From contig CAZNUP010000001.1 in assembly GCA_964576435.1 (NCBI GenBank), positions 378,259 through 442,258 of the forward strand: DNA of 64,000 nt, in the 5' to 3' direction. The stretch's first letter is position 1. Every line of letters begins with the position of its first letter. A program made the translations under genes and the position numbers. Shown here one piece after another: positions 19,727 to 34,938 of the stretch. The notes under the pieces were generated by a model, which searched no databases, was not told the DNA's origin, and worked only from the letters and a program-made list of their open reading frames with translations. The stretch is from an uncultured Gammaproteobacteria bacterium. Lineage in GTDB: Bacteria; Patescibacteriota; Microgenomatia; JAMCZE01.

Positions 19727-19729
19727 AAA

Positions 19730-21019: not shown

Positions 21020-21129
21020 ATATTACATCACAAAGAATAGATTTAAAATAGTTATAAAACCGCTCTTGCAATTTATCATATAAAACTGTATCATCCATTT
21101 AATTCTCTGCCCAAGAATTTATTAAACCT

Positions 21130-21483
21130 ATGGCAGACGAAACAACTCTTCCAGAACCAAAATCCGATACATCAGACATTTTGCGAAAAGTCGTGGCAGC
21201 AATTGTGGGTTTGATTGTAATTATTCTCATTGTTCTTGCTGCTAAATGGATTGGTGACAGGATTAGAGAAAGGTTTTTCCCAGGAACAATTACACCTACA
21301 CCAACTCCAGTTGTAACCATAACTCCAATCCCAACTGGCTATATTAGTCCAATGCCAACTAGAGTTCCAAGTTACTCACACATTCCAGCAACAGGAACTG
21401 AAGACTATATATATGTTCTCGTAGGACTCATGGCAATCGGAGGAACTTCCGCTCTAGTTCTTGCAAAAAAGAAAGCTCTATAG
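21130..21483 (+). CDS. Small Pro/Thr-rich surface protein with canonical C-terminal cell-wall-sorting-like signal (IPATG + hydrophobic + KKK)
   Basis: N-terminal TM/signal-anchor. PT linker 'TITPTPTPVVTITPIPTG'. C-terminus 'HIPATGTEDYIYVLVGLMAIGGTSALVLAKKKAL' is an LPXTG-like pentapeptide, then ~17 hydrophobic residues, then a basic tail. Confidence 0.55.
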   Translation: MADETTLPEPKSDTSDILRKVVAAIVGLIVIILIVLAAKWIGDRIRERFFPGTITPTPTPVVTITPIPTGYISPMPTRVPSYSHIPATGTEDYIYVLVGLMAIGGTSALVLAKKKAL

Positions 21484-21498
21484 TATCTTCCTTGACGT

Positions 21499-21909
21499 AT
21501 GTTTCTTGCCGAAAGTACTGTCAACACAAATGTAACAAGTAATGTTAATTCCTCACAAACTTCAACGGGTGGTTCTTCCTCTCATACATCTATAACAACT
21601 ACAACAAATGGTGAAACAACACATATTGAAAGTAACGAACAAGGCTCAATTCATGTTGAAACAATAAATGGTGAAACTACTGTTAAAACTAGTCCAGGTA
21701 TGAAAGTGGAAGTTAAAAAAGGTGAAGCAAAAGTTGAAGACAATCTTAAACCCACTCCAAAAGCCAGCAGTTCTCCAGAAGTTAAAGGTGTCGCAACTAT
21801 AAATACTGAAGATGTTAAATCAGAGACAAAAGAGGTAAAACAAAATATTTTAGAACAGATTAAAGAAATGTTTGAAAACTTCTTTAAAAAGCTGCAGTTT
21901 CCTAGTTGA
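21499..21909 (+). CDS. Ser/Thr-rich hypothetical protein (no signal peptide detected)
   Basis: ORF with low-complexity S/T/N composition like its neighbours. Start uncertain. Confidence 0.3.
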   Translation: MFLAESTVNTNVTSNVNSSQTSTGGSSSHTSITTTTNGETTHIESNEQGSIHVETINGETTVKTSPGMKVEVKKGEAKVEDNLKPTPKASSSPEVKGVATINTEDVKSETKEVKQNILEQIKEMFENFFKKLQFPS

Positions 21910-21964
21910 CACATTTAGAATTGGCTTGTATCATTGCGTTTAACTTCTGCCCAAAAGTTTTTTT

Positions 21965-22687
21965 ATGAAAACTCGAAGGGCAACCACTATTACTTTAGAA
22001 ATTCCCCAAAATCCAATTCCTGAAATTCTTTCAATGGTTCAAGACTTTGCTTCTGACACTCAAAGTAAAGGCTCAAACATTATTTCAAATATAAAATCAA
22101 AACTTTCTTCCGGAAGAAACGGAAATAAATTTAAAAACTACCTCCCTATTGTTATTGTTGCCATAGTTGCTCTTGGAGCAATTTTCTTCGTCGGCAAATT
22201 TATAACTTCAGCAATTGCGAACTCACACGCTAATTCAGTAGATAATAGAGTTGAGTTGAAAGGTCCAAGAGCAAAAATGACCGTTAATAAAACTTTTGAA
22301 TTCCCTCTTAAAGATGATAAAGGAAAGACAATCGCCACTCTCAAATTCTTATTAGGTGACGCTGAACTTCGAGACGAAATAATTCTCCAAGGACAAAAAG
22401 CAGTTGCTGTAAAAGGTAGAACTTATTTAATAACCACAATTAAATTAACAAATAGTTCTGACAAATTTATTCAAATGAAAGTCAGAAACTATGTAAGACT
22501 TAATGTCAACGGTAATAAAGATGAATGGTTGGCTGCTGAAATTCATAACGATCCAGTTGAAGTGCAACCAGAATCCACAAAACAAACTCGTCTTGGATTT
22601 CCAATTAACGACACAGATAAAGATTTAATCCTAAGAGTTGGTGATCTTGAAGGCAAGAAAGAATCCATTCCCCTAAACTTTAACTAA
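21965..22687 (+). CDS. Membrane-anchored hypothetical protein with extracytoplasmic beta-rich (DUF4352-like) domain
   Basis: Cytoplasmic N-terminus, TM 'LPIVIVAIVALGAIFFVGKFI', then a ~150-aa domain 'LKGPRAKMTVNKTFEF...YLITTIKLTN'. Confidence 0.5.
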   Translation: MKTRRATTITLEIPQNPIPEILSMVQDFASDTQSKGSNIISNIKSKLSSGRNGNKFKNYLPIVIVAIVALGAIFFVGKFITSAIANSHANSVDNRVELKGPRAKMTVNKTFEFPLKDDKGKTIATLKFLLGDAELRDEIILQGQKAVAVKGRTYLITTIKLTNSSDKFIQMKVRNYVRLNVNGNKDEWLAAEIHNDPVEVQPESTKQTRLGFPINDTDKDLILRVGDLEGKKESIPLNFN

Positions 22688-22691
22688 GTTT

Positions 22692-22877
22692 ATGCAAGGA
22701 CAATCTAAAAAACCATCATTAAACGACGAAATACAAGCCGCTCTCCAAAATATCCGTTTCGGTAGTGTTGAAATCTACATTCAAGATGGAGTTGTCACCC
22801 AAGTAACTGCAAGAAATATTAAGAAGACAAAATTTGAAATTTCTAAAGATTTAAAACCGGCCAAGAGTAAAAGTTAG
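22692..22877 (+). CDS. DUF2292/YezD-like small protein
   Basis: 'IRFGSVEIYIQDGVVTQVTARNIKKTKF' matches the YezD (DUF2292) core 'YGSV.I.IQDGKVVQIE'. Confidence 0.5.
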   Translation: MQGQSKKPSLNDEIQAALQNIRFGSVEIYIQDGVVTQVTARNIKKTKFEISKDLKPAKSKS

Positions 22878-22970
22878 AGGATAGATTTGACATATTGACA
22901 AAGCTATTTTCAAATTGTAAAACTGTTTACAAGTAAATATAGTATAAATATTTAGGACGTCTACCGCAAA

Positions 22971-23040
22971 CGGAGACTTCTTTATCTGAAATTCATAGAA
23001 AATCTATTGAAGATTCAGGTCAGGAAGCCTCCGTTTTTTT
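22971..23040 (+). promoter_or_regulatory. Long leader hairpin plus U7 (intrinsic-terminator-like) upstream of the repeat-protein gene; attenuator or upstream-operon terminator
   Basis: CGGAGACTTC...(43-nt loop with internal pairing)...GAAGCCTCCG followed by TTTTTTT. Candidate promoter TTGACA-17-TAAAAC lies upstream at about 22900-22934. A CCCGATCGGG palindrome sits at 23064-23073. Confidence 0.4.
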
Positions 23041-23128
23041 ATTTTATTTGTCGCGAAGATCAACCCGATCGGGAGTGACAAATAAAAGGACGGAAAGGAA
23101 AAAAATTGAAAGGGGGTGAATCGATAAA

Positions 23129-24358
23129 ATGACAAACTTTAAAAAACAATTAGTAGGTGCTCTCGCAACCGGCCTCTTGGTCGCCAATATTTTGGCCCCA
23201 GTCGCCTATGCAGAAGATGGAATCCATCTTGAAGTGAGTGGAAATGGAGCAAAATCCGATTCCACAATCAACGCAGCTGTTTCAAACACTACTGCCGTTA
23301 CCCAAAGTAACGTAGCTAATGTCACAAACAATGTTGATTCAACATCCAATAGCGGAGGAAACAAGGCTAGTGGAAACACTTCTGGAGACGTTTTAATCAA
23401 GACTGGTAAAGCTACATCTAATGTAGAAGTCGCCAATAACTTGAACACAAACGTAGCCAATGTTGATTGCTGCGGAGCCACTTCCACTAACGTTACTATT
23501 TCTGGAAATGGAAAGAAATCAGATAATGATGTAAACCTTTCACAGACCAATGCTAACGTTGTTGCACAAACAAATGAAGCAAACGTCTTAAACAACGTTG
23601 ATTCAAAAGCAAACAGTGGAAAAAACAAAGCTAATGCAAACACTGGAGGCGATGTCACAGTTGTGACAGGAGCAGCCACTGCAGGAGCCGATGTTTCCAC
23701 ACATGCTAATACTAATGTTGCAAACATTGGTGGAGGACATATGGGAGATGAAGGAGAAGTTTCCTTGATCATCTCAGGAAATGGAGAGAAGTCAGACAAT
23801 GATATTGCCTTGGCACTCTCTAACGCTAATTCACTCATTCAAGCAAACGAAGCTAACGTCACTAATGACGTTGATGCAAAAGCTAATTCAGGATACAACA
23901 AAGCCAACGCTAATACCGGAGGCGAAGTTGCAATCTTAACTGGAAAAGCAGACGCAATGGTCGGAGTTGACAATGATGTTAACTTTAACTGGGCAGACGT
24001 TGATTGCGGATGTGTTACCGATTTGAAAGCTAAAGTAGCTGGAAATGGCAAAGAATCTGACAATGATATCAATGCCTCACTCGTTAATACTAAGTTAGCT
24101 GAACAAGTGAATGCAGCAGCTCTACAAAATAATGTAGACGCAAAAGCCAAATCTGGTTGGAATAAAGCAAACGATAACACCGGATCAGTTGAAGGAAGTG
24201 ATCCAGCTATCTTAACTGGGGATTCGTCCTCAAACACAGAAGTTGGAAATTCCAGTAACTGGAACGTGTTTGGAAATGGAGAACTTACTCCTTTGCCAGA
24301 ATTCGACTTTGATTTTGACTGGAGTACATTCATGTTCTGGATGGTTCAACATTCATAA
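23129..24358 (+). CDS. Secreted tandem-repeat surface protein (novel 'SGNG...NSGxNKxNxNTGG' repeat family, ~89-aa period, Cys-pair junction motifs)
   Basis: Strong SD (AAGGGGGTG). Signal peptide 'LLVANILAPVAYA'. Four repeats start at aa 37, 125, 216 and 305, each with '[IV]SGNGxKSD.....N.VD..ANSG.NKANANTGG[DE]V.[IV].TG'. Cys motifs 'VDCCGATS' and 'VDCGCVTD' sit at repeat junctions. Confidence 0.75.
   Translation: MTNFKKQLVGALATGLLVANILAPVAYAEDGIHLEVSGNGAKSDSTINAAVSNTTAVTQSNVANVTNNVDSTSNSGGNKASGNTSGDVLIKTGKATSNVEVANNLNTNVANVDCCGATSTNVTISGNGKKSDNDVNLSQTNANVVAQTNEANVLNNVDSKANSGKNKANANTGGDVTVVTGAATAGADVSTHANTNVANIGGGHMGDEGEVSLIISGNGEKSDNDIALALSNANSLIQANEANVTNDVDAKANSGYNKANANTGGEVAILTGKADAMVGVDNDVNFNWADVDCGCVTDLKAKVAGNGKESDNDINASLVNTKLAEQVNAAALQNNVDAKAKSGWNKANDNTGSVEGSDPAILTGDSSSNTEVGNSSNWNVFGNGELTPLPEFDFDFDWSTFMFWMVQHS
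23225..24280 (+). repeat. Four ~267-nt coding tandem repeats inside the 23129-24358 gene
   Basis: Periodicity of the SGNG/NTGG motif blocks in the translated protein. The nucleotide level is diverged (not identical copies). Confidence 0.6.
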
Positions 24359-24372
24359 CTGAAATCTCAAAC

Positions 24373-24418
24373 TTCGTAAGGGTCTTTGCTTGAGCACTTC
24401 AGGCAAAGCCCCTACGAA
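24373..24418 (+). terminator. Strong stem-loop (16-17 bp near-perfect inverted repeat) downstream of repeat-protein gene; candidate terminator without U-tract
   Basis: TTCGTAAGGGTCTTTGC - 13-nt loop - GCAAAGCCCCTACGAA. Starts 15 nt after the stop codon at 24358. Confidence 0.4.
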
Positions 24419-24447
24419 ATAGAGAAAAATAAAATTAAAACTAGATA

Positions 24448-26679
24448 ATGAAAAATCTTAAAAATAAAATTACAAAATCGCTAAGCATACTATTAATTGT
24501 GATTCTCTTTTTGGGTCACATGTCTCCCCTTGCTGTTTTAGCAGAAGAAGGAACACCAACGCCAGAGCCCACTCAACAAGTTCAACAAGAAGCAACACCA
24601 ACTCCTCAACCTGAAGCAACTCAAATACCAGCACCTGTTGCAACACCAGTTGCACCAACCACGCCAACAGCACCAGTAACTCCTGTAGCACCAACTAACC
24701 CAAATCCAGTTGTTGTAGCACCAGTAACTCCAGTGGCTCCAGTAGCGCCAAGTAATTCAAATAATAATTCAAATAACGAAGAATCTAAAAATAAAGAGGC
24801 CAATAAAGAGAAGAAAAGATCAGAAAATAAATCCAACAACAATAGTGGTGGAAACGTTGGTGATACAACTGTAAATACTGGTAGCACAAATACTAACGGA
24901 GCAATCGTAACAGATGCTAATTCAAATCTTGCTGGCACAAACGGAGGATCAACAAATGGAGTAAGTATCGTAAATGCAAATAATGGCCAGGCTTCAGACA
25001 ATAGTGGTTCAGCGTCAGTTGTTAACAACGACAATACCAATCAAAACAACAATGCCAACGTTTCAAACGGACTTAGTCTAAGTTCTGATTCCGGAAGTAA
25101 CAAAAGTAATGGCAATGTTGGTGATACAACTATTAAAACTGGAGATTCAAATGTTTCAGGAACAATAATCACAGCAGTGAACACAAATGTTGACGGCGTC
25201 ATGGTCTCAGAATTTAATATCGCTGATGATCACGTTGGAGACATCGTCTTAGACTTTGGTGCAAATTGTGTCTCTGGTTGTGGTAACAGCAACGTATCAG
25301 CAAACAACACAGGTAATGGAGCAAATTCAAATAATACGGCCAATTCTGATTTAACAAACAACACAAACACTTTCCAAAATAATGACGCCAATGTTGGTAA
25401 TGACCTTGTCTTGTCAGCAAATAGTGGGAACAACAAGGCTAACGCAAATACTGGTGGAGATAGTTCCATTCAAACTGGCGACGCGAATGTTTCAGGAAAC
25501 GTTCTGACAATGGCTAACAACAATTTTGCAGGGAATGTCGTTTACGGGGTAGTCAACATTTATGGAGATCTTCATGGAGATATCGTTTTCCCAGAAGAAC
25601 AAATGACAGGTTGTTGTGGAACTGGAAGTCTCGCTGCAAACAATATTGGCAATGGATCCAATTCAACAAATTCTGCTAATGGAAGTGCAACCAACAATAA
25701 CAACACGACACAAAACAATAACGCCAATATTACAAACACACTTGATCTAGATGCAGTTACTGGAGACAATAAATTGAATGCAAATACTGGTGGTAATTCC
25801 GAAGTCACAACAGGCAACACCAATGTTCAAGCCAATGTCTTGAATGTCGCCAACAATAATCTTGATGGCGGTAATATGTGGCTTGTCTTAATTAACGACG
25901 CAGGTAAATGGATTGGTAAATTAGTTGGAGCCGATGGAAATATGGCTGCTTCTGGTGGAACAGTTCTAACAGTTGACGAAAATGGTCAGATAACTGCTTC
26001 CAATAACGGAAATGGTAGCGGTTCAACAAATTCAACAGATGGTAGTGTCACAAACAACAACAATACGACTCAAAACAATAATGCCAACATAAATAACAAT
26101 GTTAACCTCTCAGCAAATACAGGTGGCAATTCAACAAGTTATAACACTGGGGGAGATAATGCAATTCAAACTGGAGATGCCAATATCATTGTTAACATGG
26201 TTAACTTTGTAAACAATAATATTACTGGCAATGGAAAATTGTTTGTCACAGTCGTTAACGTATTTGGTAGTTGGACTGGTGATTTCTTAACACCAGGACA
26301 AAAGAAAGAATCAAAGCCAGCTGCTCAAACTGTAGCTAACTCACAAAGTTCACAGTCAACAAATAATAGTAATCAAACACAGCAAGAACAAAGTTCGGTA
26401 CTTGGTTGGACACAGACTAATACACAAACAACACAAACTGTAAAAACAACTCAAACAAATCCTGCTGGCGGAGTACTCTCTTTCTTTGCTGGAGCACAAA
26501 ATAAAACTAACACTTTGAAAGAATCTGTTGGAGTTAAAGATGCAAAAATCACTAAATCTTCTAAATCAAAAGTAAAAATAAACTTGGCATGGTTGATTTT
26601 GGCTTTGCCATTTGCTATACTCTTCCTGTTAAGGAAAAGAGTGGCTCAAGTAGTCACCAAAATGACCGCTCTTCTCTAA
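24448..26679 (+). CDS. Large secreted N/S/T-rich repeat protein of the same 'NKxNxNTGG' family, Pro/Thr-rich N-terminal linker, C-terminal TM + basic tail
   Basis: Signal peptide 'ILLIVILFLGHMSPLAVLA'. 'PTPEPTQQ...TPVAPTTPTAPVTPVAPT' linker. At least 5 repeats 'SxNKxN.NTGGDSSIQTGDANVSGNVLTMANNNFAGN'. Cys motifs 'GANCVSGCG' and 'MTGCCGTG'. C-terminus 'INLAWLILALPFAILFLLRKRVA'. Confidence 0.75.
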   Translation: MKNLKNKITKSLSILLIVILFLGHMSPLAVLAEEGTPTPEPTQQVQQEATPTPQPEATQIPAPVATPVAPTTPTAPVTPVAPTNPNPVVVAPVTPVAPVAPSNSNNNSNNEESKNKEANKEKKRSENKSNNNSGGNVGDTTVNTGSTNTNGAIVTDANSNLAGTNGGSTNGVSIVNANNGQASDNSGSASVVNNDNTNQNNNANVSNGLSLSSDSGSNKSNGNVGDTTIKTGDSNVSGTIITAVNTNVDGVMVSEFNIADDHVGDIVLDFGANCVSGCGNSNVSANNTGNGANSNNTANSDLTNNTNTFQNNDANVGNDLVLSANSGNNKANANTGGDSSIQTGDANVSGNVLTMANNNFAGNVVYGVVNIYGDLHGDIVFPEEQMTGCCGTGSLAANNIGNGSNSTNSANGSATNNNNTTQNNNANITNTLDLDAVTGDNKLNANTGGNSEVTTGNTNVQANVLNVANNNLDGGNMWLVLINDAGKWIGKLVGADGNMAASGGTVLTVDENGQITASNNGNGSGSTNSTDGSVTNNNNTTQNNNANINNNVNLSANTGGNSTSYNTGGDNAIQTGDANIIVNMVNFVNNNITGNGKLFVTVVNVFGSWTGDFLTPGQKKESKPAAQTVANSQSSQSTNNSNQTQQEQSSVLGWTQTNTQTTQTVKTTQTNPAGGVLSFFAGAQNKTNTLKESVGVKDAKITKSSKSKVKINLAWLILALPFAILFLLRKRVAQVVTKMTALL

Positions 26680-26703
26680 CACTCCTGCCCCCAATTTATT
26701 TTA

Positions 26704-27273
26704 GTGCAAAAAACTCTTTTTACAATTTTTGCGTTCCTCTTAGTGTTAGCTCTTGTCAAAACCCAAGTACAAGCAATCGACTACAGTGTTGAAAATAATG
26801 GTGCCAACTCCCAAAACAACGTAAATGTTCAAAACACCAACAATAACTCCAATAGCCAAAGTAATACCACAAATATCACTAACAATGTAAATGCTAATGC
26901 AAATACAGGTGGCAACAGTGCTTCAGGTAATTCTGGAGACAGTACTATTATTACTGGCGATTCAACAGTTAGTATTTCCATAACTAATAATGGAAACGGC
27001 AACAATACTCAAACTGGTTGCTGTAAAACTCCTACGCCAACAAAAACACCAACTAAGGTTCCAACTCCAGATCCAACAGGCACTCCAAACTCAGGAGGAA
27101 GTAATGGAGGATCGTCTGGTGGAAGTAGTTCTGGTGGTAGTTCAGGAAGTTCTTCAAGTCCACAAGTCCTGGGCCTTTCTAAGACCGCAGGCACTCAAAA
27201 AGTTGACGTCGCATTCTATTTAGCTGGAATCTTATGCCTAGGTCTCGCCGGAAAAAGACTTCTAAAAAGTTAA
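26704..27273 (+). CDS. Small secreted repeat-family protein with PT linker and C-terminal 'LGLSKTAG'-TM-basic sorting-signal-like tail
   Basis: Signal peptide 'AFLLVLALVKTQVQA'. One 'ANANTGGNSASGNSGDSTIITGDSTV' repeat. 'TGCCKTPTPTKTPTKVPTPDPTGTP' linker. C-terminus 'VLGLSKTAGTQKVDVAFYLAGILCLGLAGKRLLKS'. Confidence 0.6.
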   Translation: MQKTLFTIFAFLLVLALVKTQVQAIDYSVENNGANSQNNVNVQNTNNNSNSQSNTTNITNNVNANANTGGNSASGNSGDSTIITGDSTVSISITNNGNGNNTQTGCCKTPTPTKTPTKVPTPDPTGTPNSGGSNGGSSGGSSSGGSSGSSSSPQVLGLSKTAGTQKVDVAFYLAGILCLGLAGKRLLKS

Positions 27274-27803
27274 CCCTCAAGGACTATCTGCCCATTCTCT
27301 TAATAGTAATTGGCCTAGTTCTATTAATGGTTCCCCTAGCAACGAAAAACATTGCTTCTGCTCAATCTAACCCTATAAAGATAAAATCAGAACTTCTTTC
27401 CAAAAAAGACACTAGGGAAGTCCCAATCAGGATTTTAGTCCCTAAATATAAAGTTGATCTTCCCATAATTGAAGCAAAAGTAGTAAATGGGTTGTGGGAA
27501 CTTTCAGAAACAACCGCCTCCCATGGTGTTGGATCGGCTAATCCCGGTGACAAAGGTAATATCGTTGTTTTTGCTCATGCAAGGGACGATCTATTTGGTC
27601 CAATTAGATATATTCAAAAAGATGACGAGATTTATCTTCTAACTAAAGATAAATGGCACAAATACAAAGTTGAGGAAACAAAGCTTGTTGACCCGAGTGA
27701 AGTGAAAGTAATTGCTCCCACCAAAAAAGAAACCCTGACTTTGTACACTTGTTCAGGATTTCTTGATTCCAAGAGGCTTATTGTTGTTGCAAAGCCATCT
27801 TAA
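27234..27803 (+). CDS. Sortase family transpeptidase (N-terminal signal-anchor; catalytic His/Cys/Arg present)
   Basis: Basic N-terminus plus TM. 'NIVVFAHARDD' (His), 'LTLYTCSG' (TLxTC Cys), 'RLIVVA' (Arg). Overlaps the upstream gene by 40 nt. Confidence 0.8.
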   Translation: MPRSRRKKTSKKLTLKDYLPILLIVIGLVLLMVPLATKNIASAQSNPIKIKSELLSKKDTREVPIRILVPKYKVDLPIIEAKVVNGLWELSETTASHGVGSANPGDKGNIVVFAHARDDLFGPIRYIQKDDEIYLLTKDKWHKYKVEETKLVDPSEVKVIAPTKKETLTLYTCSGFLDSKRLIVVAKPS

Positions 27804-27810
27804 TTGCTTG

Positions 27811-27838
27811 CCCCGGGGTCAGATTGCTGTTCCCGGGA
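27811..27838. terminator. GC-rich hairpin between convergent genes (sortase and repeat protein); candidate bidirectional terminator
   Basis: CCCCGGGG - 12 nt - TCCCGGGA gives a 7-bp G/C stem. A U-rich run follows on the + strand (AUCAGCUUUUAAGUUU). Confidence 0.4.
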
Positions 27839-27851
27839 TCAGCTTTTAAGT

Positions 27852-28457
27852 TTAGAGCACTGTATTGCCCTCTCCAGTTACTGTAGTTTCAACACTAGAA
27901 TCAGCTGGGCCAGTTACGACTCCATTTGTTCCATTGGTGTTGTCTTTCACAGTGTTTCCGCCGGTATTAGCGACTGAGGAAACTGCTGTAACAGCAACGG
28001 TGTTACTCTTTTGTTTCACGACGTTTGTAGTGCCGGAAACGACTGTCACTGTGTTAACGGATTTTTTACCGTTTCCGGTAATGCTAACGTCAGTAGAATC
28101 GCCACATCCACAAGATGGAGCAACTGCTTCATTGGATCCACCCATAACAGTAGTTGTAACTGTTGATGTGGAAGCGCCAGTTGTAACTCCATTTGTTCCA
28201 CCAGTGTTTCCATTAACTTTGTTGTTTCCACTGTTAGCTACAGAAGAGACGAATGTTAATGCCATGGTGTTACTTGTTTGCTTGGTGATATTTTTATTTG
28301 CAGAGATAGCAGTCACTGTGTTAACGGATTGTTTTCCATTTCCACTAATGTTAACTGTGTTTGCTGCAAATGCTGCGGATGCTGTGGTAGCGACCAAAAG
28401 GCCAATTGCCAAAGCTCCTGTTGTTCCTTTCAAAATTAGTTTGTTCATATTATTCAC
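27852..28457 (-). CDS. Secreted repeat-family protein (two ~85-aa SGNG/NTGG repeats separated by 'PSCGCGDSTD' Cys motif)
   Basis: Signal peptide 'ALAIGLLVATTASAAFA'. Repeats 'ISGNGKQSVNTVT...ANSGNNKVNGNTGGTNGVTTG' and 'ITGNGKKSVNTVT...ANTGGNTVKDNTNGTNGVVTG'. The + strand ORF over the same DNA translates to P/V/T nonsense. Confidence 0.65.
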   Translation of the reverse strand: MNNMNKLILKGTTGALAIGLLVATTASAAFAANTVNISGNGKQSVNTVTAISANKNITKQTSNTMALTFVSSVANSGNNKVNGNTGGTNGVTTGASTSTVTTTVMGGSNEAVAPSCGCGDSTDVSITGNGKKSVNTVTVVSGTTNVVKQKSNTVAVTAVSSVANTGGNTVKDNTNGTNGVVTGPADSSVETTVTGEGNTVL

Positions 28458-28466
28458 CCCCTTTCA

Positions 28467-29504
28467 TCAAAGTTCACATTTAATTCGAGTTTCTGCTTCA
28501 CATGTGTCTTTTCCATTTCCTCCGTTAGCTTTGTCAGTTCCTGTTTCCCCAAATAACTTGTCATCACCGTTTCCGCCGTCAATGATGTCGTTTCCCCCGC
28601 CGGCATGAACTTCATCCCTGTCATTACCAACGTCAATTGTGTCAACTCCTGATCCTGAAACTATTAGATCATTTCCATTTCCACCAATAATGTTGTTGTT
28701 CCCGTCCCCTGCAGAGATATTGTCATCCTCATTTCCCCCATCGATTGTGTCGTTGCCACTTTCTGCCGTGATAACATCTTTCCCATTTCCCCCATCAAGT
28801 TTGTTATTTCCCATTCCCCCAACGATACAGTCATCATTATTTCCTCCATCAATTGTGTCGTTTCCTTCAAGACCAATTATCAAGTCTTTTTTATTTGTTC
28901 CATTAAGTTTGTCATTACCTGAGGTGCCCATTATTGTTGAAGTGTATTGGCTGATATCCCCACAAGCTGCGGGTAGAGAAAACGCGACACCGATTTGTAA
29001 ATCAAAAACTATTTTTGTGTTTTGAAATTCATTTCCAGCATTTGGATCAAAATCTAATTTAAATGTATATTGTTTAGTGGCTCCTGAATTTAAATTGCCT
29101 AAGGCCATTCCGTCTGGTCCATTGCTTTCACTAAAAAATTGACTAAGTGTTTTCGGGCCATAAACCGTAGTAGCTCCTTGTGTGATTGTTATTTCTAAAA
29201 CTCCAGACAAACTAGCTGTTTCGGAAGTTAAAAGACCCCGAACTGCGATGGGTTTAAGGTCTGGTGATGAATTTGTGACATTAACATTCCTATTTTCCGA
29301 TTGTCCCGGTGCAGCATTAGCTATATTAAATAGTGGTGTTCCAGGTGGAACTCCCCAGTCAACTGTTAGGTCCCCAACAGCGTAAGCGGTAGGGGATTTG
29401 AAAATATTCATAACTCCCCCACTAGCCCAAACTAATATTGCTATTACTCCTAAAACAATTCCAATTCTGATAAATCTTTTTGTCATATATTTAGCATGAA
29501 CCAT
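28467..29504 (-). CDS. TasA/camelysin-like N-terminal domain fused to RTX-type (GGxGxD) calcium-binding beta-roll repeats; SipW-cognate-like signal peptide
   Basis: Signal region 'WASGGVMNIFKSPTAYAVGDLTV' (compare TasA 'GGGTWAAFNDIKSKDATFASGTLDL'). 'NIANAAPGQSE...NVTN' and '...FDLQIGVAF' are TasA-like. The C-terminal half carries at least 10 nonapeptide-like repeats 'GGNGNDLIVSG', 'GGNGDDKLFG', 'GGMGNNKLDGGNGKD'. Confidence 0.7.
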   Translation of the reverse strand: MVHAKYMTKRFIRIGIVLGVIAILVWASGGVMNIFKSPTAYAVGDLTVDWGVPPGTPLFNIANAAPGQSENRNVNVTNSSPDLKPIAVRGLLTSETASLSGVLEITITQGATTVYGPKTLSQFFSESNGPDGMALGNLNSGATKQYTFKLDFDPNAGNEFQNTKIVFDLQIGVAFSLPAACGDISQYTSTIMGTSGNDKLNGTNKKDLIIGLEGNDTIDGGNNDDCIVGGMGNNKLDGGNGKDVITAESGNDTIDGGNEDDNISAGDGNNNIIGGNGNDLIVSGSGVDTIDVGNDRDEVHAGGGNDIIDGGNGDDKLFGETGTDKANGGNGKDTCEAETRIKCEL

Positions 29505-30126
29505 TATTTGTTAACCCTTTTGTTGACGTGTTGCAGTTTTTGAATGAACCGGTACCATCGATATTTCGACCTATTGAAACATTTGCACTGCTTGAGGCGT
29601 AAGTTTGCGCGCTGACTGTAGCTCCTAAATTATTTTCTAAATTTAATCCATCTCCGGCATTGTTAAGCCAACCCGCGCTATGGTTAAAAGCAAGTATTTG
29701 ACCTGGTGTAATTGTCCCAGTTAGCGCTAAGTCATCAGCTCTAGTGTTATTTGCGTCAAAAATCCCCCAGCCTGTCAAATTTATTGAGGTGTTACCAATG
29801 TTAATTATTTCTACCCATTCATCTCCAATGCTCGGTTGAGTCATAAACTCATTAATTTGCAGATTAGTGATTGGTGCGGGAGTTGGGATTGGGGATATTG
29901 TCGGCGTGGGGGTCAATGACGGTGTTGCAGTTGGAGTAGTGGCTTCAATTGGTGTTACAGTTGGTGTAATTTCTTGTGGTGGAGTTTGCGGAAAAAGGCT
30001 AGCTGCAGTAAACAAATTTCCGCTATTAGAATTAGTGCTGGAAAATAATGCATATGTGACACGATAAGATATTAATGTCAAAAACACTAAAATCATTCCT
30101 ATTAATAAAAAGTGTTGTTGTTTCAT
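29491..30126 (-). CDS. Lamin-tail-domain (LTD) protein with SipW-cognate-class signal peptide and PT-rich linker
   Basis: 'YALFSSTNSNSGNLFTAASL' matches the SipW-cognate signal pattern (AxFxD/S...N.FTAG.L). 'TPTVTPIEATTPTATPSLTPTPTISPIPTPAPIT' linker. 'INEFMTQPSIGDEWVEIINIGNTSINLTGWGIFD' is LTD-like (PF00932). Confidence 0.7.
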   Translation of the reverse strand: MKQQHFLLIGMILVFLTLISYRVTYALFSSTNSNSGNLFTAASLFPQTPPQEITPTVTPIEATTPTATPSLTPTPTISPIPTPAPITNLQINEFMTQPSIGDEWVEIINIGNTSINLTGWGIFDANNTRADDLALTGTITPGQILAFNHSAGWLNNAGDGLNLENNLGATVSAQTYASSSANVSIGRNIDGTGSFKNCNTSTKGLTNNGSC

Positions 30127-30671
30127 GGTGTAGCTGCAATCTCATTTCTAACTTTTTTCTCAATTTGGACTTCCATCTCCTTTTTAATATTCCAAATTTC
30201 AAAGCCCATGAAAATAAAAGCTGGAATGGCGATCGCAATAATAAATCCTGTTGGAGTTTTTAAATTTTGAGACAAATTTCCAATATAAGGTATAGTCGCA
30301 ATCCACTTACCCTTTATGGAACTGCTATTCACTGGATCCAAGTCAGCTGCATTATTAGCGTCTCCTTTTGTTTTAAAACTCACGATATCGTTTGTCATAA
30401 TGGTCTGGTTAATTCTGTGAGCGATTGTCCTTTTGTTTATGTCTTCAAAAACAACTAAGTCGTTTAATTCATAGTTTTTTTGAGGGCTAGTAAAAATTAC
30501 AGACCCAACAGGTACAGAAGGCTCCATGCTTCCCGAGGCTATTGCAAAGCTCCGAATGCCACCTAGCACATTAGAATTTGAAGTGATAACGGTTGCCCCG
30601 ACCAAAATAAGGATCAAAGCCAATGTTGATTTAAGAAAGATTCCTAAGCCAGTTAGTATTTTTTTGTTCAT
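30123..30671 (-). CDS. sipW: SipW-type (ER/archaeal-type) signal peptidase I with C-terminal TM
   Basis: N-terminal TM. 'SGSMEPSVPVGSVIF' (the catalytic-Ser SGSMxP box of S26B/SipW-type peptidases). Second TM near the C-terminus 'FIIAIAIPAFIFMGF'. ATGA overlap with the downstream LTD gene. Confidence 0.8.
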   Translation of the reverse strand: MNKKILTGLGIFLKSTLALILILVGATVITSNSNVLGGIRSFAIASGSMEPSVPVGSVIFTSPQKNYELNDLVVFEDINKRTIAHRINQTIMTNDIVSFKTKGDANNAADLDPVNSSSIKGKWIATIPYIGNLSQNLKTPTGFIIAIAIPAFIFMGFEIWNIKKEMEVQIEKKVRNEIAATP

Positions 30672-30706
30672 CTAATTTCAAATATATAATCGTATGTTCC
30701 CGGGTG

Positions 30707-30723
30707 GCGGGGCCATCCCCGCC
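30707..30723 (-). other. Intercistronic GC hairpin between tasA-like and sipW (no U-tract): possible partial terminator or processing site
   Basis: GGCGGGG-CCAU-CCCCGCC 7-bp G/C stem, plus an adjacent CCCGGG palindrome, inside the 58-nt gap. Confidence 0.35.
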
Positions 30724-30729
30724 AAAGTT

Positions 30730-31281
30730 TTACTGTGACGCGGTGAAAGCCATATTGAATGCTACACTTTGTCCTTGAAACGAATCGTCAGTTGTTGGAT
30801 CAAAAGTTAGTTGAGCTGCTAAGTTGTATGAACCTCCTGCGGGTAATGTTGCTCCTGAAAGAACAAAATTAGCCCAAGTTGGGTCGTCCAATGCTCCACT
30901 GCCTAGTGATGTGTCGCCTGCGTCAAAAACGCCATTGTCATTTGCGTCTTTAAAGAGCATTAGATTGAGTTTTGCTGCCAATCCAGGGTTTGCACCCCCA
31001 ATGGCAATCGAACCCACCTTAACAAAATTTGCATCAACAGTTCCTGTATTTTGCAAAGTCAGTTTTTGGGAAAAGACATCGCCAGGTGCTGCTGATGGAA
31101 TGGTAAATACGCCAGTTGATGGGGAGACCTGAGTGTTTATTCTCAAGACCATATTACCGGCTCCAAAAGTATTTCCAGTGTTGGTATTAGTTGAACTAAA
31201 TGCTGCAAAAGCACTACCTCCAAGCATGGCTAAGCAAGCCACGATTGAAACTGCACTAATTGCTATTTTTCGATTTAACAT
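30730..31281 (-). CDS. TasA/camelysin-family protein with SipW-cognate-class signal peptide
   Basis: Strong SD GGAGGTGAG. 'MLGGSAFAAFSSTNTNTGNTFGAGNMVL' signal (TIGR04088-like). 'IPSAAPGDVFSQKLTLQNTGTVDA' (compare TasA NLKPGDKLTKDFQFENNG). C-terminal '...VAFNMAFTASQ'. Confidence 0.75.
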   Translation of the reverse strand: MLNRKIAISAVSIVACLAMLGGSAFAAFSSTNTNTGNTFGAGNMVLRINTQVSPSTGVFTIPSAAPGDVFSQKLTLQNTGTVDANFVKVGSIAIGGANPGLAAKLNLMLFKDANDNGVFDAGDTSLGSGALDDPTWANFVLSGATLPAGGSYNLAAQLTFDPTTDDSFQGQSVAFNMAFTASQ

Positions 31282-31305
31282 AAATTTTTCTCACCTCCTT
31301 CACAC

Positions 31306-31342
31306 AAAAAACCAGCTATCTGGGCAGATAAAGCTGGTTTTT
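31306..31342 (-). promoter_or_regulatory. Long near-perfect hairpin with A5/U5 flanks in the 5' leader of the tasA-like operon (candidate attenuator/operator)
   Basis: AAAAACCAGCTATCTG-GGC-CAGATAAAGCTGGTTTTT. Lies between a candidate minus-strand promoter (TTGCCA-17-TAATAA, about 31352-31380) and the SD. The 'TGGGCAGA' core recurs at about 31391. Confidence 0.4.
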
Positions 31343-31562
31343 CATTAGATTTTATTAATTTTTTAAAATTGAATTGGCAAACTTTCATTTGGGCAGAATT
31401 TCCAAATAAACTTTTTGTGTTTGCCTCCGATGGCGGTCAGCAAGAATAACCATATCAAGACCAAGTCCATGACTGTCAACAAGACAAATTACATCGAAAC
31501 TATGTCATGGTTTTTTGCCATTTTCACTGAATAAAAATCAATTTTTGAAGCGGGAAAAATAT

Positions 31563-31576
31563 GCTAGAATAAATTA
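31563..31576 (+). promoter_or_regulatory. Extended -10 (TGcTAGAAT) placed 6 nt upstream of ATG: candidate leaderless promoter for 31577 gene
   Basis: TGCTAGAAT-aaatta-ATG. No Shine-Dalgarno sequence. Confidence 0.4.
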
Positions 31577-32512
31577 ATGAAACCTCACGAACATCTTCTT
31601 CACATCTTTACTCCAAGGCATACTAATAACCACAGAGCCAAGATTCTTCATTTTTCTGGATTAACTTTCTGCATAGCACTTTTGCTAGTTTTTCAATTAG
31701 CTTTAACCTTTGTTCACGCAGTTGATCCCGAGGTTTTAGGATATGCATCTAATATCAATGTCTCAGATCTTTTAAGTCAAACAAATTCGAGACGCGCACA
31801 AGCAGGTGTTGGTGCACTAGCTTTAAATGATCAATTAACAAACGCCGCTTCAGGTAAAGGTGCTGATATGTTTCAAAACCAATATTGGGCGCATGTATCC
31901 CCATCTGGAAAAGAACCATGGGCTTTCATAACTGGAGCTGGTTATAACTACGTTTTCGCTGGTGAAAATTTAGCAAGAGATTTCGGGGATTCTAAAGGTG
32001 TTGTTGATGCTTGGATGAATTCACCTTCACATAAAGAAAATCTTTTGAACGAAAGGTTTAAAGATGTCGGTTTTGCCATTGTTAATGGTAAATATGGAGA
32101 TTCTGAAACAACGCTTGTAGTACAAATGTTTGGTTCAAAGGCGAGTGATGCTCCATCAATTTCTGAAGTAGCAGCTGTTAATACTCCAATCCCATCAGAA
32201 ACTCCAACATTAACACCGACCACAACCATAACCCCTGTCGCTCCAGTAAATCCTGCCAACGGACAACCTCCAACGGGGGTAGTTCTTAGGACAGAGACTC
32301 AGATTACCAATCCAAAATTTGATATCTTATCTCTCTCAAAAACTCTAGCCTTTGGAATAACAATGTTACTTCTAGCAGCATTAGTTATTGACGCAGTTCT
32401 AATCTACAAAAGAAAAACTGTCCGTATTTCTGGTCACAACATTGCTCACATGTTGATTTTAATTACAGTGCTAGTTGCAGTAACCTTAATTGGAAGGGGG
32501 ATAATTATTTAA
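31577..32512 (+). CDS. CAP/SCP (YkwD-like) domain secreted protein with PT linker and C-terminal 'LSLSKTLA'-TM-basic tail plus second TM
   Basis: N-terminal TM/signal. 'QYWAHVSPSG...WMNSPSHKENLLNERFKDVGFAIV' is a CAP/PR-1 signature. 'IPSETPTLTPTTTITPVAPVNP' linker. C-terminus 'ILSLSKTLAFGITMLLLAALVIDAVLIYKRKT'. Confidence 0.7.
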   Translation: MKPHEHLLHIFTPRHTNNHRAKILHFSGLTFCIALLLVFQLALTFVHAVDPEVLGYASNINVSDLLSQTNSRRAQAGVGALALNDQLTNAASGKGADMFQNQYWAHVSPSGKEPWAFITGAGYNYVFAGENLARDFGDSKGVVDAWMNSPSHKENLLNERFKDVGFAIVNGKYGDSETTLVVQMFGSKASDAPSISEVAAVNTPIPSETPTLTPTTTITPVAPVNPANGQPPTGVVLRTETQITNPKFDILSLSKTLAFGITMLLLAALVIDAVLIYKRKTVRISGHNIAHMLILITVLVAVTLIGRGIII

Positions 32513-33439: not shown

Positions 33440-34195
33440 ATGACCAAGCCCAAAATAGTGATTGCCATGCCCACCTATAATGAGGCGGAAAGCATTGGGA
33501 AAATGCTGGATGTGCTAACTAAAGATATTTTTCCAAAAATCAAAGACCATGATGTCCAGGTTTTAGTAATTGATGGGCACTCTCCTGATGGAACCTGGAA
33601 AATAGTTGCCGAAAAAGCCAAAAAGAATAAATCAGTAGTTCTCCTAGATGAAGGTAAAAAAAGCGGCCTAGGTGCTGCTTATACTAATGGTTTTAACTAC
33701 GCCATAAAAACTCTTAAAGCTGATGCAATTATGGAAATGGATTCCGATTTCCAACATGATCCACAAGACATCCCAAGATTCATTGCAGAATTTGATAAAG
33801 GCCATGACTATATCTTGGGATCAAGGTATATCAAAGGTGGTTCAATTCCAAAAGAATGGGGATTAGATCGTAAATTCTTATCAGTTGTTGGTAACCTTGT
33901 TTATCAATTTGGTCTTTTGATGTTTGATATCCATGATTTTACAACTGGTTATCGCCTAGCAAGGGTAAAGGATTATTTAGATTCAATAAACTTTGAAAAA
34001 GTTTTTTCTAAATCTTTTGCCTATAAAACTCGTCTGCTTTATGAAATGAAAAAGAGAGGTGCCAAGATTGAAGAAATCCCAATTAAGTTTGGAGTAAGAG
34101 GTGCGGGAGATAGTAAGATGACTACAAATACATTAACTGAAAGCGTCAAAATTATCGCAGTGATTTGGGCAGATCGTCTAGGATTGTCAAAATGA
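33440..34195 (+). CDS. GT2 polyprenyl-phosphate sugar synthase (Dpm1/GtrB/ArnC-like), soluble form
   Basis: 'IVIAMPTYNEAESI', 'VIDGHSPDGT', 'MDSDFQHDP' DXD-type GT-A motifs of dolichol-phosphate mannose synthase-like enzymes. Confidence 0.85.
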   Translation: MTKPKIVIAMPTYNEAESIGKMLDVLTKDIFPKIKDHDVQVLVIDGHSPDGTWKIVAEKAKKNKSVVLLDEGKKSGLGAAYTNGFNYAIKTLKADAIMEMDSDFQHDPQDIPRFIAEFDKGHDYILGSRYIKGGSIPKEWGLDRKFLSVVGNLVYQFGLLMFDIHDFTTGYRLARVKDYLDSINFEKVFSKSFAYKTRLLYEMKKRGAKIEEIPIKFGVRGAGDSKMTTNTLTESVKIIAVIWADRLGLSK

Positions 34196-34938
34196 AAAAA
34201 CTTGTCATAGTTGCCCCTACTTTCAATGAAGAAGAAAACATCGAGGACTTCATCACAAACACCCTAGCTCAGCAAATAAGACTAAACAATGTGGATTTGG
34301 AACTTCTTATTTCAGATAGTATTTCCAATGACAAAACAAAAGAGATTGTTCAAAAAATGCAAAAAAAAGAAAAGAAACTCCACTTTTTAGAGTCTAAAAC
34401 TCCAGGTCCTGGAAAGTTGGGTGCCGGTCTAATTGAGGGTCTAGATTATGCGACTTCAAATCTTAAAGCAGATTACCTGATCACTATGGAGGCAGATTTA
34501 ACAAATGACGTCAATAAAATTCCTGAGATTGCAGATCTACTAAGTAAGTTTGAAGTGGTAATCTGTAGCAGATATATAAATGGTGGCCGTGTTGTTAATT
34601 GGTCGCTGTGGAGGAAGTTTTTAAGCTACTTTGCAAACTTAATTTTGCGAACTCTTTCCGGAGGCTCTAAATTGCATGAATTTACCAACCTTTACAGGGG
34701 CTTCCATAAAGATGTCTGGCAAAAGCTCCGTCCGGAGTTAATAGCTCAAACTGATTGGCTTTTTGTTCCGGCATTCGTTTTTGCAGTAATTCAGGGCAAG
34801 TTCAAAACGGTTGAGATTCCCTATACGTTTTATGATCGTTTTGGTGGCAGATCTAAGATGCAAACTCCCTCATATACAAAAAACTTGCTTATATTTGCGC
34901 TAAAATATAGACTAAACCGTCATGGAGCATTTTCTTAA
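34192..34938 (+). CDS. GT2 polyprenyl-phosphate sugar synthase paralogue (Dpm1-like)
   Basis: Start chosen at the ATG that overlaps the upstream TGA (ATGA). 'LVIVAPTFNEEENI', 'MEADLTND'. Confidence 0.8.
   Translation: MKKLVIVAPTFNEEENIEDFITNTLAQQIRLNNVDLELLISDSISNDKTKEIVQKMQKKEKKLHFLESKTPGPGKLGAGLIEGLDYATSNLKADYLITMEADLTNDVNKIPEIADLLSKFEVVICSRYINGGRVVNWSLWRKFLSYFANLILRTLSGGSKLHEFTNLYRGFHKDVWQKLRPELIAQTDWLFVPAFVFAVIQGKFKTVEIPYTFYDRFGGRSKMQTPSYTKNLLIFALKYRLNRHGAFS

Follow-up and report, generated by a model that had tools for sequence, protein, structure and literature searches.

A surface-protein island with Pro/Thr-rich tracts beside a large glycosyltransferase locus in a patescibacterial genome

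The DNA described here is a stretch of 64,000 nt (contig CAZNUP010000001.1, positions 378,259 to 442,258), referred to as the window; all positions below are window coordinates. It carries an island of surface-protein genes (21130-31281) and, further downstream, a glycosyltransferase (GT) locus that extends from 33440 to the window end. Several proteins of the region contain Pro/Thr-rich (PT) tracts, and a preliminary description of the DNA had taken these as probable acceptors of O-mannosylation by the neighbouring GTs, with export, anchoring and glycosylation forming one functional unit. The genes identified, the statistics on the tracts, the synteny and the fold class reported here point, with slightly better than an even chance in our estimate, to two neighbouring modules in which the tracts act as stalks, and not to one unit.

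Surface-protein island

The gene order in the window is tsaE-tsaB, an aminotransferase gene, the island, a gene pair encoding a CAP-domain protein and an 88-aa protein, trmD and the GT locus. The island contains the following genes (TM, transmembrane helix):

21130..21483, plus strand: mini surface protein of 117 aa, with an N-terminal TM, a PT tract, the motif IPATG, a C-terminal TM and a KKKAL tail
21499..22687, plus strand: two proteins without a PT tract, one of 136 aa (Thr/Ser-rich) and one of 240 aa (single TM)
23129..24358, plus strand: secreted protein of 409 aa without a PT tract, with four Asn-rich repeats of ~80 aa and CC/CxC motifs
24448..26679, plus strand: secreted protein of 743 aa, with a signal peptide, a PT tract, four or five Asn-rich repeats and a C-terminal TM anchor
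26704..27273, plus strand: putative sortase substrate of 189 aa, with a signal peptide, one Asn-rich repeat, CC, a PT tract, a Gly/Ser tract, PQVLGLSKTAG, a TM and a basic tail (KRLLKS)
27234..27803, plus strand: sortase (transpeptidase)
27852..28457, minus strand: secreted protein of 201 aa without a PT tract, with two Asn/Thr-rich repeats and a CGC motif
28467..31281, minus strand: four-gene operon, made up of the next four entries
28467-29504, minus strand: RTX calcium-binding repeat protein
29491-30126, minus strand: LTD protein with an N-terminal PT tract
30123-30671, minus strand: SipW signal peptidase
30730-31281, minus strand: TasA/camelysin-like protein

The mini surface protein matches the Pfam family Gram_pos_anchor with 22.9 bits (cut-off 20) and TIGR01167 with 25.2 bits (cut-off 15.9). 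Its orthologues in four related loci (L051, L055, L137 and L139) keep the motif IP[AS]TG, and their linkers vary in composition. A hidden Markov model (HMM) of the mini-protein found no additional members in the metagenome loci described below, for which the model may be too short or divergent. The 136-aa and 240-aa proteins match no Pfam or NCBIfam family; their orthologues stand in the same order in L051, and L101 and L112 have members of the 240-aa family as well.

A sortase and a SipW peptidase had been proposed for the island, and both assignments were borne out by family models. The sortase matches PF04203 with 87.9 bits and TIGR01076 with 47.5 bits (cut-off 39.35); all class-specific sortase models of NCBIfam stayed under their cut-offs. 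The PQVLGLSKTAG box of the adjoining 189-aa protein may be a variant sorting signal; a 'QVLG[AL]S...TG' box followed by a TM and a K/R tail recurs in proteins that adjoin sortase genes in many related loci.

SipW, a signal peptidase I of the archaeal/ER type, exceeds the cut-off of TIGR02228 (80.2 bits; cut-off 51.85) and stays under that of the SipW equivalog model (95.5 bits; cut-off 190). The TasA/camelysin-like protein matches PF12389 over its full length (56.1 bits; cut-off 22.5), and its match to the TasA equivalog is weak (20 vs 450 bits). The LTD and RTX proteins match PF00932 (45.1 bits) and PF00353 (80.3 bits), respectively. The model of SipW-cognate signal peptides, TIGR04088, gave 14.8 bits on the TasA-like protein (cut-off 19), and by eye the N-termini of the TasA-like and LTD proteins have a common motif, A[AL]FSSTN[TS]N[TS]GN.F.A, after the hydrophobic core, at the position of a SipW-cognate signal. 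The TasA-like/SipW/LTD/RTX quartet is collinear in five related loci (L051, L052, L066, L096 and L135). By analogy with known fibre systems, the TasA-like protein probably serves as a subunit of the fibre, with the LTD protein in an accessory or initiating role.

Asn-rich repeat proteins

Four paralogous products of the island (23129, 24448, 26704 and 27852) contain a repeat of ~80 aa with the pattern GNGxxSxN...Q.N.A...NSGxNKANxNTGG...TG; in the alignment, CC or CxC motifs lie at the repeat boundaries. The repeat has no match among Pfam and NCBIfam models. A search of 1.84 billion proteins with a profile built from the 11 repeats of the window detected 3147 cluster representatives at E <= 1e-3, of which 2019 also passed E <= 1e-10; most are ~410 aa (4-5 repeats) or ~750 aa (5 repeats) in length. 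Judging by these matches, the repeat proteins look like a large uncharacterised family of surface proteins. A word-based search with the 27852 protein returned only 6 full-length homologues, and the AlphaFold2 (AF2) model obtained with these 6 sequences was unusable (pLDDT 37).

N-glycosylation of the Asn-rich repeats was considered and rejected, as N-x-S/T sequons do not occur above the level of shuffled sequences (z −2.2 to +1.3). A WWDxG-type motif is absent from the C-terminal domain of the GT encoded at 35413, which also speaks against N-glycosylation of the repeats. Long open reading frames (ORFs) rich in Pro, Phe, Leu, Val, Ser and Thr lie antisense to the Asn-rich repeat and RTX genes, at 23206-24333 (minus), 24621-25040 (minus), 27865-28608 (plus) and 28639-29025 (plus). 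These four ORFs are by-products of biased composition, not genes.

Pro/Thr-rich tracts

A tract was defined as at least 10 Pro or Thr residues in 15, and the null expectation was taken from 300 within-protein shuffles. Of the 57 proteins scanned in the window, five are tract-positive against 0.007 expected, and all five are encoded in 21-32.5 kb, in the island or by the CAP gene. Each of the tracts quoted in the preliminary description was found in the ORF to which it had been assigned:

21271-21339 (aa 48-70 of the 21130 protein), plus strand: tract between the first TM and the IPATG sorting signal
~24553-24753 (~aa 36-102 of the 24448 protein), plus strand: Pro/Thr/Ala/Val tract directly after the signal peptide
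27007-27096 (aa 102-131 of the 26704 protein), plus strand: tract between the repeat domain and the Gly/Ser tract with the sorting signal
29866-29994 (aa 45-87 of the 29491 LTD protein), minus strand: tract directly after the signal peptide
32180-32254 (aa 202-226 of the 31577 CAP protein), plus strand: tract between the CAP domain and the second TM

The tracts are 23-67 residues long, with ~30% Thr and ~30% Pro (TITPTPTPVVTITPIPTG and TPTPTKTPTKVPTPDPTGTP are examples), and are thus Pro/Thr-rich, not poly-Ser/Thr. According to the layout of signal peptides and TMs, all five are predicted to be extracytoplasmic and to lie between an attachment point and a folded part. The unusual composition of the region, in which the Asn-rich repeat genes yield spurious long antisense ORFs such as 23206-24333 (minus) and 27865-28608 (plus), might suggest that the tracts are compositional or frame artefacts or arose by chance. 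This explanation is refuted by the coding frames in which the tracts stand, which belong to ORFs with recognised domains and orthologues, by the excess over shuffled proteins and by the conservation of tract positions in L051; its residual probability is close to nil. The possibility that the linkers are slippage-prone DNA repeats was also rejected: Tandem Repeats Finder reported no tandem repeats over the tracts.

Contrary to the claim that every secreted protein of the region carries such a linker, the products of 21965, 23129, 27852 (minus), 28467 (minus) and 30730 (minus), as well as the sortase (27234), are exported or membrane-anchored and lack a tract. Exported proteins encoded further upstream in the window (878, 2076, 5839, 6510, 7998 and 16537) also lack one.

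In L051, four island orthologues (~55% identity) retain PT tracts at matching positions with changed sequences. More distant orthologues of the mini surface protein (L055, L137 and L139) have linkers of mixed T/S/P/V/K composition. Only 8 of 79 CAP orthologues contain a PT tract, and the CAP protein of L003 is essentially without a linker. Linkers that vary or vanish in distant orthologues thus behave as spacers, and their evolution fits disordered segments under a loose compositional constraint; this pattern argues neither for nor against glycosylation. In 80 related metagenome loci, 25 of the 321 ORFs that lie to the island side of the CAP gene have a PT tract, compared with 2 of 421 to the GT side. 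Judging from these sequences, the surface proteins of this lineage commonly have PT spacers as their linkers; the enrichment may merely mirror where exported proteins are encoded, because the island side is the exported-protein side. A relative assigned to Blackburnbacteria (L003), in which the slot described in the next section is empty, encodes a secreted 285-aa protein just beyond tsaE (13613-14470 of that locus) that combines a very long (TPTP)n-type tract with a C-terminal anchor. Surface proteins with PT linkers are therefore not confined to the slot itself.

Conserved backbone and variable slot

Three genes separate the island from the GT locus:

31577-32512, plus strand: membrane-tethered CAP/YkwD-domain protein with one N-terminal and two C-terminal TMs
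32512-32778, plus strand: 88-aa protein with three TMs, directly after the CAP gene
32775-33401, minus strand: trmD, encoding tRNA m1G37 methyltransferase

The CAP domain was recognised by PF00188 (65.8 bits) and TrmD by PF01746 (192.8 bits); the position of trmD is kept in most relatives. The relatives sampled were TrmD-anchored loci of GTDB species representatives, contigs with orthologues of the 35413 protein and the 80 metagenome loci, which were anchored on the CAP gene and scanned with HMMs built from the window families. The CAP gene was accompanied by a gene for a 3-TM protein of 84-92 aa in 48 of the 48 loci whose downstream flank measured 2 kb or more, and in this sample the pair is strictly conserved at the border of the glycosylation locus.

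The backbone common to the relatives is composed of tsaE-tsaB, a slot, the CAP and 88-aa genes, a second variable gap, trmD and the series GT2-GT2-GtrA-GT-C-GT2-MptA/B-like GT-C, where GT2 and GT-C denote GTs of these two types. Of the 19 loci with a downstream flank of ~10 kb, 16 have GT2a. The tsaB-CAP slot was surveyed in the 17 loci in which both anchors are visible, namely the window and L003, L055, L065, L071, L076, L091, L092, L101, L103, L112, L117, L120, L136, L137, L139 and L140. It does not exceed 62 bp in five of them (L003, L071, L076, L136 and L140), contains only a mini-protein resembling 21130 in two (L137 and L139), and measures 1.1-1.3 kb in another two. In the remaining eight, a cassette of the sortase and/or TasA type occupies a slot of at least 4.8 kb; the window belongs to this group with 11.9 kb (19726-31577). 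Overall, the slot ranges from 24 bp to ~12 kb. From its contents, the tsaB-CAP interval behaves as a hot spot that holds a sortase with Asn-repeat proteins, TasA-SipW-LTD genes or SpaA-like giant adhesins, or is empty. In L044 and L138, it encodes a sortase and a SpaA/SdrD-like protein of 2022 aa with a PT/PS-rich N-terminus. An initial view that the island is absent elsewhere, based on six GTDB relatives found through TrmD, was overturned by the wider sampling, which revealed a variable cassette in a conserved slot.

The second gap lies between the 88-aa gene and trmD. In the window, these genes overlap tail to tail by 4 nt, so there is no such gap; in relatives, it often holds genes of the dTDP-rhamnose type (RmlA/B/C/D-like), GDP-mannose dehydratase-like genes or genes for UDP-glucose dehydrogenase. 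The coordinates of this gap in five relatives, the first four of which have it filled by dTDP-sugar genes, are as follows:

L001: 11538-15720
L137: 2454-5923
L139: 4020-7525
L140: 3319-8823
L044: 10672-11706

These arrangements bear on the functional unit postulated in the preliminary description, that is, a dedicated and co-evolving system of export through SipW, anchoring by sortase and GT39-type O-mannosylation of PT linkers. The two parts are adjacent in the window, in L052, in L055 and in 6 of the 10 metagenome loci with both flanks visible, as such a system would lead one to expect. However, the GT module with its trmD border is kept where the slot is empty or minimal (L003, L071, L076, L137, L139 and L140), and in L051 the whole island is found in the same order (13 genes at ~55% identity and one extra repeat-protein gene) with other genes at both ends. 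Moreover, trmD and, in relatives, unrelated genes intervene; since trmD is on the minus strand, the island and the GT genes are separate transcription units. More than half of the exported proteins of the island are without a PT tract, GT39 membership fails, as described below, and ~15 GT-C proteins far exceed the need of a single O-mannosylation step. Taken together, these points make a dedicated unit quite improbable. A lack of co-conservation had been named beforehand as evidence against it, and the surface and GT loci are largely not co-conserved: the GT module is constant and the island exchangeable. The housekeeping genes tsaE/B and trmD are equally syntenic, so the adjacency reflects general synteny and is not evidence of functional coupling.

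Glycosyltransferase locus

The locus begins with a core module, the gene order of which is kept in L044, L001, L052, L055 and L137-L140, and continues with an extended array:

33440..38655, plus strand: core glycosylation module (GT2, GT2, GtrA, GT-C, GT2, MptA/B-like GT-C), made up of the next five entries
33440 and 34165, plus strand: two GT2 genes resembling polyprenol-phosphate-sugar synthases
34922, plus strand: GtrA-family protein
35413-36894, plus strand: ArnT-like GT-C with a C-terminal soluble domain
36713-37663, plus strand: ORF of the third GT2, with the listed start at a TTG 182 nt within the preceding GT-C gene
37660, plus strand: MptA/B-like GT-C
38652 (minus strand), 44183, 45562 and 51573: unclassified multi-TM ORFs
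40345, 47422, 57675, 59252 and 61115: PMT/PMT_2-type GT-Cs of the extended array
41931 and 54945: YfhO-type GT-Cs
46977, minus strand: NUDIX protein
49167: Wzx-like Polysacc_synt_3 protein
50644, 53120 and 57025: further GT2 genes
53842: GT4
62731 to the window end: GT87/MptA-like GT-C

In total, the locus encodes ~15 membrane proteins of the GT-C type, which fall into at least four families, along with six GT2 proteins, one GT4, GtrA, the Wzx-like protein and the NUDIX protein. Six of the GT-Cs are of the PMT/PMT_2 type, two are of the YfhO type (PF09586, 52.7 bits for 41931 and 93.7 bits for 54945; cut-off 28.5), 62731 matches GT87 with weak MptA/MptB similarity, 37660 is MptA/B-like, and about five, with 9-14 TMs, belong to no recognised family. 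About a dozen GT-C-type proteins fall within the 25 kb from 38652 to 64000, in addition to three in the conserved core. For 38652 (minus), 45562 and 51573, no family was detectable even at E <= 1. The assignment of 37660 is based on weak NCBIfam matches to MptA/MptB; the protein and its orthologues had no match in the local copy of Pfam, and precomputed tables assign the orthologues to PF26314 (MptA_B_family).

The best NCBIfam matches of the GT2 proteins 33440 and 34165 are AglJ, PgfS, ArnC and dolichol-phosphate (Dol-P)-hexose transferase, all far under the cut-offs. The real start of the third GT2 is probably near 36890, because the Pfam match begins at residue 65 and the orthologues are 256-264 aa long. 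In the C-terminal soluble alpha/beta domain of the 35413 protein (~aa 400-493), residues C449, E450, C454, W462 and E463 are invariant in the alignment. The first loop of this family has an invariant G-D-x-G-R-D motif, which reads GDQGRD in 35413 and GDEGRD in the family consensus. Fusions also occur: some orthologues of 35413 carry an additional GT2 domain (P0120, 733 aa), and in L138 and L140 the GT2 gene is joined to that of GtrA.

At the level of these family assignments, the locus can safely be described as a putative polyprenol-phosphate-sugar-dependent system of extracytoplasmic glycosylation in which the GT-Cs are unusually numerous and diverse.

Family membership of the GT-C proteins

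The preliminary description counted four GT39-like paralogues immediately downstream of the island. There are in fact six PMT/PMT_2 ORFs (35413, 40345, 47422, 57675, 59252 and 61115) besides YfhO, GT87 and unclassified members, and the GT-C ORFs lie 2.9 to more than 30 kb away. Three of them pass the cut-off of PF02366, the N-terminal PMT domain (22.7 bits): 35413 with 29.3, 40345 with 38.6 and 61115 with 42.0 bits. PMT_2 (PF13231) outscores PF02366 for 35413 and is the sole match for 47422, 57675 and 59252; PF02366 is the stronger match for 40345 and 61115.

A C-terminal domain of four TMs, PMT_4TMC, is part of the architecture of bacterial and eukaryotic PMT proteins. None of the 15 multi-TM ORFs has a Pfam match to it at E <= 0.01. 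The best score with the NCBIfam Pmt equivalog, NF058602, is 15.3 bits (35413) against a cut-off of 800. For the other GT-Cs scanned, the NCBIfam matches listed were weak ones to ArnT or Agl23, to PgfM1/PgfM2 (41931) or to MptA/MptB (37660 and 62731), and several had none. Sequence searches of the PDB with 35413, 40345 and 61115 gave no matches; a profile of four paralogues matched only ArnT, at E = 4.7.

The AF2 model of 35413, the only paralogue modelled, has a pLDDT of 90.5. Its nearest PDB structure is ArnT (5f15; E 1.6e-7, TMq 0.63), followed by STT3/PglB, ALG12 and Emb/Aft; Pmt4 and Pmt1/2 rank 21-32 (E ~2e-3, TMq 0.30-0.50). An Asp-Glu motif is present in loop 1 of 40345, 57675, 59252 and 61115, but it does not discriminate Pmt, because ArnT has the same motif. 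By these tests, no GT-C of the locus passes as a true GT39 Pmt, and the conserved 35413 protein is predicted to be closest to ArnT.

Comparison with known systems

Disordered tracts rich in Pro/Thr or Ser/Thr are documented acceptors of extracytoplasmic glycosylation systems (PMC6151902, PMC5882110, PMC12041528). The choice of linker type as an acceptor region and of the glycosylation components therefore has precedents, and the component types (GT2 synthase-like proteins, GtrA and GT-C) are present in the window. The further statement that no system with this combination had been described does not hold in view of the S. mutans pgf cluster and of C. bescii Cbes_1864/celA.

In S. mutans, the GT-A enzyme PgfS and the GT-Cs PgfM1 and PgfM2 glycosylate the sortase-anchored proteins Cnm and WapA, and in strain Xc the adhesin genes lie within the same cluster as those of the Pgf enzymes PgfS, PgfM1, PgfE and PgfM2 (PMC5856776, PMC12041528). 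In S. pyogenes and S. pneumoniae, Ser/Thr-rich disordered regions outside the membrane are glucosylated by GtrB and PgtC2, the latter a YfhO-family protein, and are thereby protected from proteolysis. The acceptors of these streptococcal systems are tracts of this kind in sortase-anchored adhesins and in membrane proteins. The window resembles these systems in encoding synthase-like GT2 proteins, two GT-Cs of the YfhO family, a sortase and substrates with tracts. It differs in its low scores with PgfS (62 vs 500 bits) and with PgfM1/M2 (36 vs 1400 bits, over the C-terminal 70 aa only), in tracts that are not poly-Ser/Thr, in a core module without an epimerase gene and in its source, a bacterium of the candidate phyla radiation (CPR).

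The C. bescii GT39 protein Cbes_1864 is encoded close to celA; when the gene is deleted, the secreted enzymes, among them CelA with its linkers of alternating Thr-Pro, are no longer glycosylated, and cleavage increases (PMC6151902). A GT-C gene near a secreted acceptor with Thr-Pro linkers follows the same logic as the hypothesis of the preliminary description. C. bescii has a single GT39 gene there, in contrast to ~15 GT-Cs in the window, none of which could be shown to be GT39, and its acceptors are cellulases and not clients of sortase or SipW. In Actinobacteria, including Streptomyces, Ppm1, which synthesises polyprenol-phosphate-mannose, and the GT-C Pmt modify Thr/Ser of exported proteins in stretches rich in Pro/Thr/Ala (PMC5882110, PMC11727336, PMC12331936). 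The window departs from this system in its score with the Pmt equivalog (15 vs 800 bits), in the lack of PMT_4TMC and in the proximity of 35413 to ArnT.

With these precedents in view, a general protein O-glycosylation system may be envisaged, in which one or a few GT-Cs, of the YfhO type (41931 or 54945) or of the PMT_2 type, would place a sugar on Thr/Ser of exported PT tracts from a polyprenol-phosphate donor made by the GT2 33440 or 34165. The spacers would thereby be shielded from proteolysis, and the island proteins would be clients among others. All types of component are encoded in the window; Thr makes up ~30% of each tract and is retained in the L051 orthologues; C. bescii Cbes_1864/CelA, Streptomyces Ppm1/Pmt (PMC5882110), GtrB/PgtC2 and PgfS/PgfM1 offer precedents, and tracts recur on the island side of the related loci (25 of 321 ORFs in 80 loci). 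However, the curated models for Pmt (15 vs 800 bits) and PgfM1/M2 (36 vs 1400 bits) fail, with 35413 being ArnT-like. Linker composition is not kept beyond close relatives (8 of 79 CAP proteins are PT-rich, and the mini-protein linkers vary), and the island-side enrichment may simply mark where exported proteins are encoded. This alternative is possible but, in our estimate, clearly less than an even prospect. If protein glycosylation does occur, the YfhO paralogues would be at least as good candidates for it as the PMT_2 ones.

Many GT-Cs that use polyprenol-phosphate-monosaccharide donors serve the synthesis or decoration of envelope polymers outside the membrane: the mycobacterial sets for lipomannan/lipoarabinomannan and arabinogalactan (MptA/MptB, PimE/GT87 and Emb/Aft) and the CsbB/GtrB-YfhO proteins for teichoic-acid glycosylation in Firmicutes. 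The weak MptA/B matches, GT87, YfhO and GtrA with GT2 partners in the window recall these sets, although all of the similarities are under the curated equivalog cut-offs.

The tapA-sipW-tasA operon of B. subtilis has a dedicated SipW beside a protein of the TasA/camelysin family (PMC9674648, PMC10151520, PMC9245690), and TasA homologues have already been reported in Patescibacteria (PMC9245690). Likewise, sipW of the window adjoins a TasA/camelysin-like gene and that of a second putative client with the common N-terminal motif. The accessory proteins, LTD and RTX, are different from TapA, the TasA equivalog match is weak, and fibres are only predicted. In literature searches, no report of protein glycosylation in CPR bacteria was found; CPR papers mention multiple Dol-P-mannosyltransferase-like genes and GT87, which are read as serving glycolipid or polyprenol modification. 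The window thus resembles known systems by analogy only: it passes family-level tests (GT2, YfhO and PMT_2) and fails the curated models of Pmt, PgfS and PgfM1/M2.

Other features of the window and source lineage

Genes for SecDF and then a D-Ala-D-Ala carboxypeptidase lie upstream of tsaE/tsaB. The remaining genes on this side of the island are:

19015-19726: tsaE and tsaB, upstream of the surface island
19730-21019, minus strand: aminotransferase, between tsaB and the island

The GC content of the window is low (35-41%), with a slightly higher value at 28-30 kb (0.41 vs ~0.37). There are no tRNA genes in the window, and the Pfam and NCBIfam scans found no integrase or transposase families among the island ORFs; flanking direct repeats were not searched for. 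At 3566-5602, an unusual fusion is encoded, a 678-aa protein joining an N-terminal 4-TM holin-like domain (Phage_holin_4_2) to a type I phosphodiesterase/nucleotide pyrophosphatase domain.

The nearest relatives of TrmD are in uncultivated Patescibacteria: the best match is 68%, with Ca. Blackburnbacteria at 60% and Ca. Shapirobacteria at 53%. Orthologues of the GT-C 35413 come under such names as Microgenomates, Gottesmanbacteria and Curtissbacteria. Going by these similarities, the source is a Microgenomates-type CPR bacterium. The neighbourhood is typical of Patescibacteria of that type.

Two proposed modules and their significance

According to the reading to which we incline, the first module (21130-31281) would be a variable surface-protein cassette in a conserved slot between tsaE/tsaB and the gene for the membrane-tethered CAP protein. 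SipW would process its likely clients, the TasA/camelysin-like fibre subunit and the LTD protein, an accessory subunit by analogy with TapA. The cassette would further comprise the RTX calcium-binding protein, the sortase with two substrates bearing sorting signals (21130 and 26704) and the four Asn-repeat paralogues. The PT tracts are most likely extended, protease-resistant stalks, which would span the distance from the attachment point (TM, sorting signal or signal-peptide cleavage site) to the folded domain and bear the domains through or above the wall.

The second module, from 33440 to the window end, would be a general envelope-glycan system. Cytoplasmic GT2 enzymes would load sugars onto polyprenol phosphate, the GtrA-family protein and, further on, the Wzx-like protein would carry the lipid-linked sugars outward, and ~15 GT-Cs of several families would transfer them outside the membrane. 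That the GT-Cs are so many and so diverse, with MptA/B- and GT87-like members among them, leads us to favour the assembly or decoration of a polymer or lipoglycan over simple protein O-mannosylation. Any glycosylated PT tracts would then be served by this general machinery like any other client and would not belong to a dedicated unit.

Several observations weigh against the two-module reading. Two of the GT-Cs belong to the YfhO family, members of which O-glycosylate Ser/Thr-rich tracts in streptococci. The case for polymer assembly rests on weak family similarities below curated cut-offs. The loop-1 Asp-Glu motif of the four paralogues is as compatible with PMT as with ArnT. About half of the informative loci have a cassette beside the CAP-trmD-GT backbone, and at least one island family occurs in 13 of the 19 metagenome loci whose upstream flank measures 8 kb or more; proximity may thus confer some selective benefit.

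A bolder interpretation is that the region represents the first recognisable protein O-glycosylation system of the CPR, in which a conserved core and fast-evolving accessory GT-Cs would build diverse glycans on the PT stalks of swappable sortase- or SipW-dependent proteins. We regard this as unlikely. If true, it would provide a variable glycoprotein coat for attachment of an episymbiont to its host or for phage evasion.

Most Patescibacteria have not been cultivated, and those in culture grow attached to other microbes. The cell surface is thus of central importance for the biology of the group, but has hardly been characterised. The present finding is a plausible analogy with known systems and not a new kind of system. 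It defines a Microgenomates-type conserved slot, between tsaB and the CAP gene, in which adhesin and fibre cassettes appear to be exchanged beside a very large GT-C locus, and it supplies candidate acceptors (the five PT tracts) and candidate enzymes. If the tracts are glycosylated, lipid-linked O-glycosylation by GT-Cs would extend from Actinobacteria and Firmicutes to the CPR; if they are not, the locus would point to an unknown envelope glycopolymer. The main value of the finding lies in a defined CPR surface locus, its variable-slot architecture and a large family of unmodelled repeat proteins.

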